Below the pieces are notes generated by a model. It made no database searches. It was not told where the DNA came from and saw only the letters and a list, made by a program, of their open reading frames with translations. Shown here one piece after another: positions 9,356 through 18,999 of a DNA stretch of 27,262 bases. The position numbers and the translations under genes are program-made. Origin of the DNA: Bacteroidota bacterium (GTDB taxonomy: Bacteria > Bacteroidota > Bacteroidia > Cytophagales > Cyclobacteriaceae); NCBI GenBank assembly GCA_038525885.1, contig JBCBHI010000001.1, positions 1 through 27,262 on the forward strand. Reading direction: 5' to 3'. Position 1 is the first letter of the stretch; every line of letters begins with the position of its first letter.

Positions 9356-9386
9356 TTGAGTATTGGCGCGGAAGTCCGTACCTTTG
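9356..9386 (+). promoter_or_regulatory. Bacteroidota primary-sigma promoter
   Basis: TTG (9356-9358), 20-nt spacer, exact TAnnTTTG (TACCTTTG, 9379-9386), 17 nt before ATG 9404. Confidence 0.65.
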
Positions 9387-9403
9387 CCGCTTCAATTTTA
9401 CTA

Positions 9404-9910
9404 ATGGAGAACGAAGAATTTTTACCCGCAGACTCCCTCACCCCCAAAGAGGTTAACGCGCTTATCCAGTTTGACGCGACTGCGTCTGGTCAACCCACCG
9501 ATGCTTATTATGCTTTCTTGTTTGCTATGTACACCGGGCTAGCCCTTTCCGACCTAGGAAAACTGGATGCTGACCAGCACTTAGCCATGACAGAGAAAGG
9601 TCTTATCCTTCAGTTTGGCACCCGCACGGTTATGCTAGATGAAGTAGCTGACGGTGCTGCCGGAACGATTTGCGACTTGTACAACGGTGTATACGGCCAG
9701 CCTTTTTTCGGCCCTATCCCTCCTCGTATTTTCCCCGTTAAGCTCAAGGCTTTGTTCAAAGAAATTGGCGTCTCACGCAAGCTCAATCTTGACGACGGGT
9801 TTGCAATGCGTACTGGGTTAAATTATTACCAGGATCTTGGACTTAGCGCAGAGGAAATTCATTCCTGGACAGGCTCACACCTACCTACCCCAGTACAAGA
9901 GGCTGTGTAA
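9404..9910 (+). CDS. Tyrosine recombinase-like catalytic-domain protein, apparently inactive
   Basis: SLTPKEVNAL...AFLFAMYTGLALSDLGKL resembles the integrase box I (xLTxEE...FLFxxxTGLRxSD) with R replaced by A; box II-like C-terminus KEIGVSRKL...AMRT...LGLSAEEIHSWTGS; start placed at ATG 9404 because the promoter lies upstream of it. Confidence 0.6.
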   Translation: MENEEFLPADSLTPKEVNALIQFDATASGQPTDAYYAFLFAMYTGLALSDLGKLDADQHLAMTEKGLILQFGTRTVMLDEVADGAAGTICDLYNGVYGQPFFGPIPPRIFPVKLKALFKEIGVSRKLNLDDGFAMRTGLNYYQDLGLSAEEIHSWTGSHLPTPVQEAV

Positions 9911-14338: not shown

Positions 14339-14695
14339 CTAGCCAAATAGGTACATCCATATCATCCGGGACATGCGGAAATTAAACACCCAAAATAATA
14401 CCACGGGTATACACACCACGGCCATGATTCCTTCTATGCTGAGCGGAAAAAAGAGGGTAATCAGAAAAGCCGCAATCATTTCGAGCAAAGCCAGTCCATA
14501 ACTAACGTACATGGCTCCGGTAAAAAAGCCTGGCTCGGTCTCAAACCGATGATGGCAGACAGGACATTCCTCGTGCATTACCGGGATTTTGAACTGCGAA
14601 ACGCTTCCTTTCGTCTTGAAAACCTGTCCTTGATGACACCGGGGACACCGCTCCTGCATCATGTTTTTCACGCGTCTTTGTGTTGTTATTTCCAT
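14339..14695 (-). CDS. DUF983-like protein (CPxC...CPxC zinc ribbon plus 2 TM helices)
   Basis: CPRCHQG...CPVCHHRFETEPGFFTGAMYVSYGL. Confidence 0.8.
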   Translation of the reverse strand: MEITTQRRVKNMMQERCPRCHQGQVFKTKGSVSQFKIPVMHEECPVCHHRFETEPGFFTGAMYVSYGLALLEMIAAFLITLFFPLSIEGIMAVVCIPVVLFWVFNFRMSRMIWMYLFG

Positions 14696-14736
14696 AGCAC
14701 TACAAAGTTGGTGGTTCGGTTAAGGAATACCCACGC

Positions 14737-14770
14737 TCCAAGTTTCAAAAACTTGGACAAAAAGGACATC
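14737..14770. promoter_or_regulatory. Candidate operator in the DUF983/AraC divergent region
   Basis: Perfect inverted repeat TCCAAGTTT-CAA-AAACTTGGA (14737-14757) overlapping the tandem GGACA-AAAA-GGACA. Confidence 0.5.
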
Positions 14771-14782
14771 TTGCACATACTC

Positions 14783-15658
14783 ATGAAATGGGACATCCTA
14801 CATCTAGAACAGTTTGAGACGTCGCTGCATCAAGACGGACTTTATGTCAATGTGCTAAAGGATCATCTGGAGGCTCACAAGGAGGCCATTGCCCCGCCTC
14901 ACAAACATAGTTTCTTCCTGGTGGTGGTGTTTACTCATGGCGAAGGGGTACATGAAATTGATTTTGAGCGCTACCCGGTATCTGCCGGAAGTGTGTTTTT
15001 TCTCACCCCTGGGCAAACACATCACTGGGAACTGAGCGATGATGCAGATGGAGTGATCTTTTTTCACTCCCAGGAGTACTTCGATGTGTCCTTTACTCAG
15101 CAGTCCGTATTTCAATTTCCCTTCTATTACTCGCAGCAGAATCCACCGCTGTTGCAGCTGACCGAGCTGCAACAACAACAGGCCCTGTCACATTTTGAAG
15201 GCCTCCTGGCAGAGCACCAGAATGATGGTGCCTGGATGAAAAGGCAGCGTATATCTGCTCAGCTTAGCCAACTCTACATCGACCTGAGCCGATGGTACCT
15301 AGCGGAAGAAAGACCAAAAACACAAGCCTACGCCACCTATTCGGAGCACTTGCGTGCTTTGGAAGTACTGATAGAGAACCAGTACACTCAGCAGAAATCA
15401 CCCACTGAATATGCAGAACAGCTGCACATGACGGTGAGGCATCTCAACCGCATAGTACAGGAGGCGTTAGGCAAAACCACCACGCAGCTTATTACTGAAC
15501 GGGTCATCCTAGAGGCCAAACGGATGCTAGTACAAACCGCCACCCCCACTACGGAGATTGCCGAAACCCTGGGGTATGTGGACTATCCATATTTTTCCCG
15601 ACTTTTCAAGAAGTGGGTGGGGATGTCACCGGCAGCTTTTGCGAAGCAGTATAGGTAA
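14783..15658 (+). CDS. AraC family transcriptional regulator
   Basis: Start likely ATG 14783 (MKWDILHLEQF); cupin-like PHKHSFF...HEIDF; C-terminal EAKRML...EIAETLGYVDYPYFSRLFKKWVGMSPAAF; the ORF-track start overlaps DUF983. Confidence 0.9.
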   Translation: MKWDILHLEQFETSLHQDGLYVNVLKDHLEAHKEAIAPPHKHSFFLVVVFTHGEGVHEIDFERYPVSAGSVFFLTPGQTHHWELSDDADGVIFFHSQEYFDVSFTQQSVFQFPFYYSQQNPPLLQLTELQQQQALSHFEGLLAEHQNDGAWMKRQRISAQLSQLYIDLSRWYLAEERPKTQAYATYSEHLRALEVLIENQYTQQKSPTEYAEQLHMTVRHLNRIVQEALGKTTTQLITERVILEAKRMLVQTATPTTEIAETLGYVDYPYFSRLFKKWVGMSPAAFAKQYR

Positions 15659-15742
15659 TCGGCTTTTAACACGAGTATTCAAAGAAGGCTTAGAGAGCGC
15701 TGGGTTACACTTGGTGCTGGAGAAAACTCTTCATCTACCATG

Positions 15743-15792
15743 ACGGAACTAAGTTCCGTAATTGTGCCCGTGCAGGAAGTAACTTCCAGCAC
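15743..15792. repeat. Cluster of short REP-like palindromes
   Basis: ACGGAACT-A-AGTTCCGT (15743-15759) and GTGC-A-GGAAGT-A-ACTTCC-A-GCAC (15770-15792). Confidence 0.6.
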
Positions 15793-15805
15793 AGGGGAGG
15801 AAATG

Positions 15806-15834
15806 AAAAAGAGAAGCCCGAAAGCTTCCCTTAT
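15806..15834 (-). terminator. Intrinsic terminator downstream of higA
   Basis: Minus strand GGGAAGCT-TTCG-GGCTTCTC-TTTTT. Confidence 0.8.
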
Positions 15835-15896
15835 GCCAAAATCGATGATTCTGCAACTTGATAGTGGTGACACGACTTAAAGTCTTACTACCACTG
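15806..15896. repeat. 91-bp direct repeat, copy 1 (terminator plus decayed REP-like hairpin)
   Basis: 78/91 identical, ungapped, to 16799-16889; first 29 bp identical. Confidence 0.92.
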
Positions 15897-16006
15897 GTTT
15901 GCCTTCTGTTTGATAGGGCATACTGACCAGAAAGCTACCTTGAGATCAGTTTAATTGAAAAGGGTAGGATAGTTCTACAGTTCTTACTATTAAAATGTAC
16001 AGGTGA

Positions 16007-16405
16007 TCAATCTTCTACCTTCACAGAATCACTAACTAATGGATAGGGTTGATTGAGCACTTCCTGGGAAACCTTGAAATAATTGGCAAGTTTTCGAATG
16101 CTGTTCTTCGACAGGCCCGTTTGCCTACTCAGGATTTTCGAGACCGTCCCTTTGCTTAGTTCTAGGATATCTACTAAGTCTATCGCCTTTAGCCCATGGT
16201 CCTTCATTAATGCTTGAATCAAATCAATGGGATCCATCGCCTCAGGTTCGGGCATTTCCTTTTCATAACTGTGAATTAGCAGTTCAAGCAGTTCTATTTC
16301 ATCTCTATGGTTCTTATTTCCTGATTGGGATAGTTTCTCAAAAGCATCACAATACCTGAAGTACTGTTTATCGTCCTTGATCACGGTATATTTTAGGGCT
16401 GCCAT
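16007..16405 (-). CDS. higA: HigA-type antitoxin (HTH_XRE)
   Basis: EIELLELLIHSYEKE...DPIDLIQALMKDHGLKAIDLVDILELSKGTVSKILS...LSKNSIRKLANYFKVS; 2 nt after the toxin stop. Confidence 0.88.
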   Translation of the reverse strand: MAALKYTVIKDDKQYFRYCDAFEKLSQSGNKNHRDEIELLELLIHSYEKEMPEPEAMDPIDLIQALMKDHGLKAIDLVDILELSKGTVSKILSRQTGLSKNSIRKLANYFKVSQEVLNQPYPLVSDSVKVED

Positions 16406-16407
16406 AG

Positions 16408-16749
16408 TTATTCGCCTTTAAATGCATCAACTGTATACTGATTGCCACTTTCGCATAGCTTATCATATTCAGCATGAGTCCCGATCCATTTTACATATAA
16501 GTGAACTCTGCGTCTGCCAAACCAATAGCCACAAATCAACCGATACTTATTCCCTCCTAGATTAAAAACCACTCGGTTACTGCCTTTACCTAAAATGTCG
16601 GCACTACCAAAAGTGGCTACAATATCTAATGGCTGTTCCCAATCAGCTATAGGAACTAGGTTTCGCCAAATATCAATACCCGCTTTACTAGAAGCATGCT
16701 GCTGTACGAATCGGAACAGGGTTAACTCCTTTATCACATGCACCTTCAT
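16408..16749 (-). CDS. higB: HigB-type toxin (RelE-superfamily mRNA interferase)
   Basis: Start ATG 16749 (MKVHVIK); W...DIVATFGSADIL...RVVFNLGGNKYRLI...YVKWIGTHAEYDK; toxin-first gene order. Confidence 0.9.
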   Translation of the reverse strand: MKVHVIKELTLFRFVQQHASSKAGIDIWRNLVPIADWEQPLDIVATFGSADILGKGSNRVVFNLGGNKYRLICGYWFGRRRVHLYVKWIGTHAEYDKLCESGNQYTVDAFKGE

Positions 16750-16760
16750 AAGGGGGAAGA

Positions 16761-16797
16761 AGCTCAAAAAGTTTCAAAAAATGAAACTTTTTGAGCT
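16761..16797. promoter_or_regulatory. Probable higBA operator
   Basis: Perfect 16-bp inverted repeat AGCTCAAAAAGTTTCA-AAAAA-TGAAACTTTTTGAGCT, 12 nt upstream of the higB start. Confidence 0.75.
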
Positions 16798-16798
16798 A

Positions 16799-16827
16799 AA
16801 AAAGAGAAGCCCGAAAGCTTCCCTTAT
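16799..16827 (-). terminator. Intrinsic terminator of acs
   Basis: Minus strand GGGAAGCT-TTCG-GGCTTCTC-TTTTTT. Confidence 0.82.
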
Positions 16828-16889
16828 TCTATGGCCGATGGTTATGCAGCTTGGTAGTGGTGACACGACTTGAAGTCGTGCTACCACTG
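16799..16889. repeat. 91-bp direct repeat, copy 2 (intact REP-like hairpin plus acs terminator)
   Basis: Begins 5 nt past the acs stop; TAGTGGTGACACGACTT-G-AAGTCGTGCTACCACTG imperfect palindrome, then the terminator hairpin. Confidence 0.92.
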
Positions 16890-16894
16890 ATGGG

Positions 16895-18787
16895 TTACAA
16901 TGCCCCGGCTTTGATTTCTTCTACTACTCCGGGGTTTAGCAGGGTACTGATATCACCCAGATTAGAAGTGTCTCCTTCGGCGATTTTGCGAAGGATACGG
17001 CGCATGATCTTGCCGGAACGGGTTTTGGGCAGCCCACTTACAAACTGGATCTTCTCTGGCTTGGCGATGGGCCCAATGGTGCTAGACACCAAATCCAGAA
17101 TCTCCTTACGGAAAGCCACCTCGTCTTCGATGTCGTGGTAGGTGGTTACATAGGCGTATACACTTTGGCCCTTGATGTCGTGCGGGTAGCCTACCACGGC
17201 GGTCTCTACAATGTTTTTGTGCTCATCGATGGCGGATTCTATTTCGGCCGTGCCGAGGTTGTGCCCGCTTACAATGATTACATCGTCTACCCGGCCAGTG
17301 ATGCGGTAGTAGCCGTCCTCATCCCGGCGGCAGCCGTCTCCGGTGAAGTACTTACCCGGGAAGGTGCTGAAGTAGGTGTCCTTGTAGCGTTGGTGGTTGC
17401 CGTATACGGTACGAGCCATACTAGGCCAAGGAAATTTCACAGTCAGCCGGCCTTCCACATCGTTGCCCTCCAATTCGTTACCCTCAGCATCCATTACCGC
17501 TAGCTGCACACCGGGCATGGGGAAGGTGGCAAAGGTAGGCTTGGTCTTGGTCACGTGGGCGATGGGCGAGATCATAAAACCGCCCGTCTCGGTTTGCCAG
17601 TAGGTGTCCACAATGGGGCATTTGTTCTTCCCGATGTGGTCATCGTACCAGTGCCAGGCCTCCTCGTTGATGGGTTCGCCCACCGAACCCAATACGCGCA
17701 GGGTATCCAGCTTGGCCCGCTTCACTACATCCAATCCGGCTTTTTCCAGGGCCCGGATGGCCGTAGGGGCTGTGTAGAATATGTTTACGCTGTGGCGGTC
17801 GCACACGTCCCAAAAACGCCCCATATCCGGGTAGCTAGGTACCCCTTCGAACATCAGGCTGGTAGCTCCCGCAGTCAAGGGACCGTAAAGAATGTAGCTA
17901 TGCCCAGTGATCCAACCCACATCTGCGGTACACCAGTAGACATCGCCTTCGTTGTACTGGAAGGCATTGCGGAAGGTATAGTTGGTGTATACCATGTAGC
18001 CGCCACAGGTATGCACCATGCCCTTGGGGGTACCGGTAGAACCGGAGGTGTAGAGGATAAAGAGCAGGTCTTCGCTGTCCATCTCCTCGGCCTCACACTC
18101 CGGCGACTGCCCATGAATAGCATCTTCCCACCATACATCGCGCCCCGACTCCATCGTGACGGATTCGCCCGTGCGCTCGGCCACAATCACCTTCTCTACC
18201 GAGGTAGTTTCTTTGAGCGCGTCATCCACAATGGTTTTCAGCCCCAGGGTTTTGCCTCCCCGGTAGCTACCATCGGAAGTGATGACCATTTTGCAGCTGG
18301 CATCGTTGATGCGGCTGGCCAAAGCGGAGGAGGAGAATCCGGCAAACACCACACTGTGTACGGCACCCACCCGGGCACAGGCCAATACGGCCACGGCCAT
18401 TTCAGGTATCATGGGCAGGTATATGCACACCCGGTCGCCTTTCTTAATGCCTTGGGCCTTCAGCGCATTGGCAAACTGACACACCTTTTGATATAGCTGG
18501 CGGTAGGTGAGAGAGATGGGATCATCCCCAGGCTCATTCGGTTCCCAAATAATGGCCGTCTGGTCGCCCCGGGTTTCCAGATGACGGTCCAGGCAGTTCT
18601 CAGTGATATTGAGCTTACCCCCCAGAAACCACTTAGCCTCCGGAGCATGGAAATCCCATTCCAGCACCTTATCCCATTTCTTACGCCAAGTAAATTGCTC
18701 GGCCATTTCAGCCCAAAAGCTTTCAGGGTCTTCAACACTGCGGGCATAGGCCTGCTGGTAGTCTTCCCAGGTGTTAATTCTCCACAT
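16895..18787 (-). CDS. acs: Acetate--CoA ligase (AMP-forming acetyl-CoA synthetase)
   Basis: Start likely ATG 18787 (MWRINTWEDY); LYTSGSTGTPKG, TADVGWITGHSY, DTYWQTETGG, LPKTRSGKIMRRILRKI (acetylatable Lys). Confidence 0.95.
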   Translation of the reverse strand: MWRINTWEDYQQAYARSVEDPESFWAEMAEQFTWRKKWDKVLEWDFHAPEAKWFLGGKLNITENCLDRHLETRGDQTAIIWEPNEPGDDPISLTYRQLYQKVCQFANALKAQGIKKGDRVCIYLPMIPEMAVAVLACARVGAVHSVVFAGFSSSALASRINDASCKMVITSDGSYRGGKTLGLKTIVDDALKETTSVEKVIVAERTGESVTMESGRDVWWEDAIHGQSPECEAEEMDSEDLLFILYTSGSTGTPKGMVHTCGGYMVYTNYTFRNAFQYNEGDVYWCTADVGWITGHSYILYGPLTAGATSLMFEGVPSYPDMGRFWDVCDRHSVNIFYTAPTAIRALEKAGLDVVKRAKLDTLRVLGSVGEPINEEAWHWYDDHIGKNKCPIVDTYWQTETGGFMISPIAHVTKTKPTFATFPMPGVQLAVMDAEGNELEGNDVEGRLTVKFPWPSMARTVYGNHQRYKDTYFSTFPGKYFTGDGCRRDEDGYYRITGRVDDVIIVSGHNLGTAEIESAIDEHKNIVETAVVGYPHDIKGQSVYAYVTTYHDIEDEVAFRKEILDLVSSTIGPIAKPEKIQFVSGLPKTRSGKIMRRILRKIAEGDTSNLGDISTLLNPGVVEEIKAGAL

Positions 18788-18819
18788 GTCGTTTTTCGTT
18801 TTCAGGTTTTGTAAAAAAT

Positions 18820-18854
18820 AGAAGTCAGAAGCGTGAAGTGAGAAGCGAGAATTC
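18820..18854. repeat. Heptamer tandem repeat in the acs leader
   Basis: AGAAGTC AGAAGCG TGAAGTG AGAAGCG AGAATTC. Confidence 0.7.
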
Positions 18855-18999
18855 GAAGCCATACATATTCCACTTTTCAGCCCTCCTGAACTTCCCGTAT
18901 AATTTTTATGGCTGCCCGTGAGGGATAAGATTTGGATCCACACCTCCTGCCTTGCAGGCCGGTGGCATTACCTCATTCCCTCCGGGGTACCTTATCGCA

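Follow-up and report, generated by a model that had tools for sequence, protein, structure and literature searches.

The subject of the present work is a small toxin-antitoxin operon, higBA, that stands between two direct repeats immediately behind the acetyl-CoA synthetase gene acs in a Bacteroidota bacterium of the family Cyclobacteriaceae. The stretch of DNA analysed, which we call the window, comprises 27,262 nucleotides (GenBank assembly GCA_038525885.1, contig JBCBHI010000001.1, positions 1 to 27,262 of the forward strand), and the genome to which it belongs, called G000 here, was assembled from a marine metagenome, with a completeness of 77% and 1293 contigs. How two-gene toxin-antitoxin modules spread between chromosomes without a mobility gene is an unexplained problem, and it is this problem that the window locus addresses.

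Both genes of the operon are on the minus strand, with the toxin gene first. The higB gene (16408-16752) encodes 114 amino acids from the ATG at 16752, and its open frame reaches further upstream to a TTG at 16767. By similarity the product is a RelE-like mRNA interferase, matching PF09907 (E = 3.8e-22) and, in phmmer searches, the solved HigB mRNA interferase structures 5ifg, 5ycl and 6kml (E about 4e-5). After a gap of 2 nt follows higA (16007-16405), which encodes a 132-residue antitoxin with a C-terminal helix-turn-helix (HTH) domain of the Cro/C1 type (HTH_26/HTH_3; PF13443, E = 1.4e-5, and a weak TIGR02607 match). Judged by these matches, the pair fits a type II toxin-antitoxin operon of the HigBA type, with a RelE-fold HigB followed by an HTH antitoxin. 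It shares with the E. coli-type HigB/HigA (5ifg) the toxin-first order, the PF09907 RelE-like toxin, the longer antitoxin with its C-terminal HTH and a palindromic operator upstream, whereas the predicted window HigB is only distantly related to the solved ones, as the phmmer E value indicates.

The promoter end of the cassette, which abuts the right-hand repeat, is formed by a perfect palindrome (16761-16797) whose arms are 16 nt long and whose core reads GTTTCA-N5-TGAAAC. Of 36 related loci, 10 have a TTTC-N7-GAAA palindrome at a distance of 34-41 nt upstream of higB, as compared to 2 of 36 control stretches, and since both the core motif and the position match, we take the palindrome to be the cassette's own operator, which is likely to be recognized by HigA. 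At the other end, downstream of higA, the cassette terminates in a non-coding tail of 110 bp (15897-16006). Palindrome, higB, higA and this tail are all that the 902-bp interior between the repeats contains; higB and higA are its only genes, and no transposase or integrase is found inside. The G+C content is 0.38-0.44 within the cassette, 0.52-0.60 over most of acs and 0.45-0.52 on the side of the neighbouring AraC-family gene. A 275-nt contig from a second marine metagenome run of the same study (X3) holds higB and the operator, corresponding to positions 16530-16804 of the window with 4 differences, which indicates that a close strain also carries the cassette.

The two repeats, at 15806-15896 (copy 1, distal to acs) and 16799-16889 (copy 2, proximal to acs), align without gaps with 78 of 91 positions identical, and their starts are 993 bp apart (self-BLAST, E = 5.6e-24). 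Read on the minus strand, each copy runs from a hairpin through a spacer to a terminator-like hairpin that is followed by a run of T. This terminator-like hairpin is AAGGGAAGC-TTTCGG-GCTTCTCTT in both copies. A pattern scan reported exactly two terminators, at 16825-16802 and 15832-15809, and both are backed by folding (z = -5.3 for copy 2 and z = -3.4 for copy 1). The other hairpin is an unbroken palindrome in copy 2 (16857-16887), while in copy 1 (15864-15894) it has three changes, two of which disrupt the stem. The mismatches between the copies are unevenly distributed, with 0 in the first 29 nt, 10 in the next 29 and 3 in the last 33, the last three all being located within the 31-nt hairpin. 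Copy 2 constitutes the 3' module of acs (16895-18943, minus strand), a core gene whose stop codon is 5 nt away, and copy 1 provides a terminator for the higBA operon.

An earlier, sequence-only reading of the window had described this repeat pair, the identical minus-strand terminator and imperfect palindrome in each copy, and an AT-rich interior limited to the palindromic operator, the two genes and about 110 bp of spacer, free of transposase and integrase; all of this is borne out here. In addition, the integrase family PF00589 has no match on the window's contig, the matches of the genome being confined to contigs C232 and C63, and there is no Y1_Tnp match on contig C1. An open reading frame (ORF) at 9356-9910 of the window, flagged earlier as a dead tyrosine-recombinase domain, gave no Pfam or NCBIfam match at E values up to 0.01.

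Only one other genome of the genus, G001, is available for comparison, and its acs locus (L010, contig C263) is an empty site. The order there is an AraC-family gene, an extra ORF of 200 amino acids, a single terminator-plus-hairpin module, and acs. By alignment, the stretch of some 70 nt on the left side of this module corresponds to the left flank of window copy 1 (15735-15805), next to which the AraC-family regulator gene (14549-15658, plus strand) is the conserved left neighbour, and the right flank of the module is acs, as is the case for copy 2. The 993 bp that make up one repeat copy and higBA are absent from G001 and present in the window lineage. The sequence-only reading had proposed to look at the acs-araC junction of relatives for just such a site with one copy, and it is found in the one relative at hand.

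The hairpin in G001 is of the same variant as that at the window locus, with the internal triplets GAC/GCT, and in the terminator stem both window copies have an A where G001 has a G. Because the variant is shared with G001 and the A is shared by the two copies, we consider these to be sister copies of the ancestral acs 3' module, which gives both of them a private origin.

The intergenic region is variable on both sides of this comparison. The 200-residue ORF in G001 (L010 615-1217), between AraC and the acs 3' module, begins with what resembles a signal peptide and is matched by no Pfam or NCBIfam family, and in the window the gap from AraC to copy 1 is only 148 bp.

The 77%-complete G000 assembly contains the full 91-mer only twice. 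The same holds for its first 57 nt, i.e. the terminator and the spacer, which occur twice and in the same register. The last 31 nt, on the other hand, belong to a dispersed hairpin family of the form GTGGT-N3-ACGAC-loop-GTCGT-N3-ACCAC with 42 strict copies, 41 of which are located outside ORFs of at least 120 amino acids, compared to 25% of random positions. Being dispersed in this number and almost wholly outside genes, the hairpin resembles a repetitive extragenic palindrome (REP). Of the 91-mer, which the sequence-only reading had considered as a possible high-copy repeat, it is the hairpin part that is multi-copy in this assembly. Most members of the family have GGG/CTT, AAG/CCC, CAG/CAG or CTG/CTG as internal triplets. 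The GAC/GCT variant is found in only one of the 42 strict members, namely copy 2, and copy 1 has a decayed GAC/ACT version of it.

The triplet combinations GGG/CTT (14 copies) and AAG/CCC (13 copies) are two orientations of one element. With the help of G-U wobbles, its arms would form a complete stem on just one of the two strands, a hint that the element may act as RNA.

G000 encodes several Y1_Tnp (IS200-like) proteins, on contigs C108, C521, C228, C602, C1082 and C112. Two of these, the PF01797 Y1 genes at C108:4040-4911 and C521:1111-2251, each lie between direct repeats made of hairpins and resemble REP-associated transposase units; the match on C108 scores 22 bits, slightly below the Pfam cut-off of 23 bits. 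The hairpins that flank the two inspected genes differ from the 31-nt family. The window locus is accordingly similar to systems of REPs or bacterial interspersed mosaic elements with REP-associated tyrosine transposases in that its hairpin belongs to a dispersed family of extragenic palindromes and the genome encodes IS200-like Y1 proteins with flanking hairpin repeats. It differs in that the hairpin is duplicated together with unique target sequence, and in that no Y1 gene is linked to the family or to the locus. In the target duplication, both the REP-like hairpin and the terminator are carried along as passengers. The terminator hairpin is a generic terminator-like sequence that also occurs in unrelated organisms: a scan of metagenomes for it gave 14 matches, none of them beside acs or higBA.

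The arrangement is not restricted to the acs locus. The whole of G000 was searched for direct repeats with a spacing of 300-5000 bp within one contig, which revealed further bracketed toxin-antitoxin cassettes; 4 of the 14 toxin loci checked are bracketed. On contig C2 (12877-13760; L059 1378-2261), a PIN_3 toxin gene and a small upstream ORF are enclosed by 64-nt repeats. Their sequence is that of the mgtE coding end (its last 64 nt), and the insertion is at the mgtE stop codon. In G001, mgtE is separated from its convergent neighbour by 34 nt, which constitutes a second empty site. The two C2 copies agree with each other at 56 of 64 positions, and thus better than with G001, where they agree at 48 and 51 of 64.

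Contig C71 (7554-9132; L060 1055-2633) has three copies of a multi-hairpin repeat, between which a DUF433/DUF5615 pair and a ParE-type pair stand one behind the other. Its orthologue in G001 (contig C441, L077) exceeds it by about 3 kb and appears to contain, besides the ParE cassette, a further RelE/ParE-like pair and a candidate Y1-transposase ORF, so named for its sequence similarity. Since the repeat is one of a dispersed kind and the array in G001 is larger, C71 is better read as a REP-rich hot spot, or landing pad, that accumulates cassettes.

The same type of scar was found in other species. Self-BLAST of 109 higB loci, all from different species, yielded 30 direct-repeat pairs with a spacing of 400-3000 nt, of which 19 bracket higB, while 10.3 would be expected at random placement (simulated P about 2e-4). 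For spacings of up to 1500 nt, there are 10 bracketing pairs as compared to 3.9 expected (P about 1e-3). The bracketing repeats range from 22 to 245 nt and differ in content. The repeat is the start codon and 14 codons of an oxidoreductase gene in L034 (44 nt, 98% identity), a terminator in L049 (48 nt, 96%; the sequence next to it resembles the end of a tRNA gene), a portion of a coding region in L058 (245 nt, 92%), the 3' end of a TonB-receptor gene in L101 from Sinomicrobium sp. N-1-3-6 (241 nt, 99.6%), and the 3' end of the upstream gene in L160 from Parvibaculum (51 nt, 84%). Further bracketing repeats are those of L103, L146, L149 and L159, with lengths of 50, 64, 45 and 22 nt, respectively. 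The 241-nt Sinomicrobium repeat occurs only twice in its genome, and in four relatives of this locus the end of the receptor gene is 14-330 nt from the upstream gene, giving a third empty site. For L034, L049 and L058, the gene order in the relatives searched is not conserved, or the flanks are on separate contigs. The ends of the ten tight cassettes have no motif in common, their terminal inverted repeats do not exceed 6 nt, and no recombinase was found inside the bracketed cassettes or close by. What is shared lies inside, in the TTTC-N7-GAAA palindrome described above. The scar thus recurs with repeats that are unrelated to each other.

Two other patterns were seen at these loci. Compared to L058 1491-1790, the corresponding region of a related species (G006, contig C14:55765) has precisely lost higB while higA and the promoter region are kept, with 86-93% identity on both sides; the G006 gene is an orphan antitoxin left by a toxin deletion. 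In L053 (1820-2724), L055 (1853-3135) and L050 (2108-3020), from three genomes of the family, a second copy of higA, or of its end, follows at a distance of about 830-850 bp on the downstream side, beyond an unrelated ORF. This is a distinct repeat pattern, in which the toxin is not bracketed.

Taken together, we consider it likely that the window locus is an insertion with long target duplication (ILTD), that is, a higBA unit accompanied by a 91-bp duplicated target, and that the repeats are copies of the landing site rather than recombination sites. ILTD of restriction-modification gene units was reportedly described by Nobusato et al. in 2000 (Gene 259:99). It has been documented for restriction-modification units of all types, with the criteria that the repeat is longer than 30 bp, that the insert is shorter than 20 kb and has no mobility genes, and that the repeats align to a single copy in another genome (Furuta, Abe and Kobayashi 2010, NAR 38:2428, PMC2853133). 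At the window locus, the 91-bp duplication exceeds the 30-bp threshold, the 902-bp interior is below 20 kb and without a mobility gene, and both copies align to the single module at L010 in G001. As with restriction-modification units, we see a small selfish unit of deviant composition, free of transposase and integrase, between long direct repeats whose length and sequence vary from case to case and of which a relative has one copy only at its empty locus.

There are also differences. The cargo is higBA and not a restriction gene with a modification gene, so that the match to ILTD lies in the structure and not in the cargo. HigBA is a toxin-antitoxin system of type II, and its toxin has its relatives among the RNA-cutting HigB proteins, not among DNA-cutting enzymes. 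Moreover, unlike in the ILTD criteria, part of the window repeat is a multi-copy hairpin. A full-text literature search returned no paper on ILTD around toxin-antitoxin pairs, and a 2013 review states that some restriction-modification systems insert by long target duplication, with nothing further. The window locus adds a case with a toxin-antitoxin cargo to a kind of insertion that is already known and mechanistically unexplained. The sequence-only reading had likewise proposed that the cassette duplicated the acs 3' module at insertion. The discrete, self-promoted unit, the extra copy of the target and the empty site in G001 agree with this, but the role of recombination site that was suggested for the module is not supported, as the other cassettes duplicate unrelated sequence.

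The data show how the locus is built, that G001 has an empty site, that the two copies have a private origin and that the scar recurs with unrelated repeats; beyond this, we infer the following course of events. A foreign, self-contained higBA unit of about 900 bp, comprising operator and promoter, HigB, the HTH antitoxin and the 110-bp tail, would have been inserted 5 nt downstream of the acs stop codon, with direct duplication of the 91-bp target consisting of the REP-like hairpin, the spacer and the intrinsic terminator. Copy 2 would still serve acs, while copy 1 would now terminate the higBA operon as its hairpin decays. The sequence-only reading, according to which acs retains its terminator and the cargo gains one, is supported in this respect: acs keeps an intact 3' module of hairpin and terminator, and the displaced copy 1 retains only the part that is still useful, the terminator.

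As to the insertion itself, the most likely route would be the capture of a linear DNA fragment by host replication or repair. The target could be duplicated either at a staggered break that is filled in, or when replication switches template to the incoming DNA and then resumes at a position behind the one it left. As a rule, recombination between the repeats would remove such an insert again, except where its loss is harmful. Since losing a toxin-antitoxin pair harms the cell, we propose that the scar is preferentially seen around addiction modules. For restriction-modification units, DNA cleavage by the cargo had been proposed as the route. As HigB is related to solved mRNA interferases, this is unlikely to be the general explanation.

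A number of points weigh against the assignment to ILTD. The uneven divergence of the two copies (0/29, 10/29 and 3/33) is not explained by simple duplication followed by neutral decay; it requires selection on both terminators, gene conversion, or two alleles of different origin. With one relative, an insertion in the window lineage is indistinguishable from a loss in G001 through recombination between the repeats, and either way the arrangement is that of a cargo with a duplicated target. Recent mobility of the higBA unit also lacks support: no close relative of the window cassette was found in 150 genomes of the family, where the best HigB has 57% amino-acid identity, or in one genome each of 185,579 species, where the best has 58%. 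Finally, we know of no explanation of the ILTD mechanism in the literature either.

One alternative to ILTD is that the cassette arrived already joined to the acs 3' module of another lineage and entered by homologous recombination, such that one repeat is foreign and the other is the displaced resident. This could have involved a linear fragment anchored in acs, with its far end joined illegitimately, or, as the sequence-only reading had suggested, an excised circle with one repeat that integrated in Campbell fashion at the resident copy. The mosaic nature of the repeat, with 29 identical nt followed by a block with 19 of 29 identical, fits a crossover in the identical block or two alleles, and the uneven divergence is more easily explained in this way, or by gene conversion, than by ILTD. 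The repeat boundary is also 0-5 nt from a stop codon in three cases. Against this, comparison of the acs genes of G000 and G001 gives an even identity along the gene (0.74-0.93 per 90 nt) and reveals no mosaic breakpoint near the 3' end, a weak test given the single relative. In both the acs and the mgtE cases, the states derived relative to G001 are common to the two copies, and no donor-type arrangement, i.e. the cassette without the duplication, was found in the relatives searched for acs, mgtE and the Sinomicrobium locus. The first insertion would, furthermore, still demand another mechanism. We therefore regard this scenario as rather unlikely. Three public runs cover the region, as assembled contigs only and at about 10x; one contig ends at 16288 and the next begins at 16832. 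No joint skipping the cassette, no circle and no empty-site variant is visible in them, and the data are uninformative in this regard.

It could also be envisioned that the REP-like hairpin, or the whole terminator-plus-hairpin module, is a site used in trans by a REP-associated Y1 transposase or by a Xer-type or integron-like recombinase, the mobile unit being the cassette plus one site. The hairpin family is dispersed and almost entirely extragenic, Y1 proteins with hairpin repeats alongside are encoded in the genome, and at C71 two cassettes lie among three multi-hairpin repeats, with a larger G001 orthologue that seems to include a Y1_Tnp-like ORF. The duplication, however, includes 57 nt of unique terminator and spacer beyond the hairpin, the repeats of other bracketed cassettes contain neither hairpin nor terminator, repeat length and content vary freely, and the cassette ends are not conserved. 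The evidence is already inconsistent with a single conserved recombination site, and taken together with the contig's lack of an integrase-family match it makes this alternative highly improbable.

An integron reading in particular was rejected. Integron cassettes, including the toxin-antitoxin cassettes of superintegrons, are similar to the present case in having small, often promoter-bearing cargo between repeated structured elements. However, the window has no attC-type site, no site is conserved across the cassettes, there is no IntI gene (PF00589) on the contig, and the repeats copy the local target. The sequence-only reading had noted that the site has no attC GTTRRRY/RYYYAAC cores, and inspection by eye of both strands of the two copies agrees with this. 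Its further suggestion, a new integron-like system that targets terminator/REP modules, is unsupported, as the other cassettes duplicate the end of mgtE, the start of an oxidoreductase gene, the end of a TonB-receptor gene and a terminator next to an apparent tRNA gene.

That a mobile terminator/REP element landed separately on each side of a pre-existing higBA is hardly credible and largely refuted, for although the 31-nt hairpin is multi-copy and many single genes in G000 are flanked by REP-like pairs, the unique 57 nt are shared by the two copies in the same register, the hairpins of both are of one rare variant that G001 shows to be ancestral at acs, and of the two flanks in G001 the left one corresponds to that of copy 1 and the right one to that of copy 2.

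Taken with the excess of bracketing repeats around higB among the 109 species, the three cases with an empty site argue for a general host process, together with selection against losing addiction modules, as the origin of the scar, and not for DNA cutting by the cargo. As a tentative generalization, chromosomes may acquire toxin-antitoxin pairs in the same manner as restriction-modification units, through a host route that requires no recombinase, that does not depend on DNA cleavage by an RNA-cutting type of toxin and that duplicates tens to hundreds of target bases, with hairpin-rich gene ends such as the present REP-plus-terminator module perhaps being preferred break points. If this is true, the movement of toxin-antitoxin modules, a long-open question, would become directly testable. 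The scar in any case provides a concrete signature for searches in pairs of genomes and for reproduction at the bench, and it is a warning for annotation: short orphan gene ends, terminators or REP hairpins beside toxin-antitoxin pairs are to be regarded as scars of insertion and not as functional sites.

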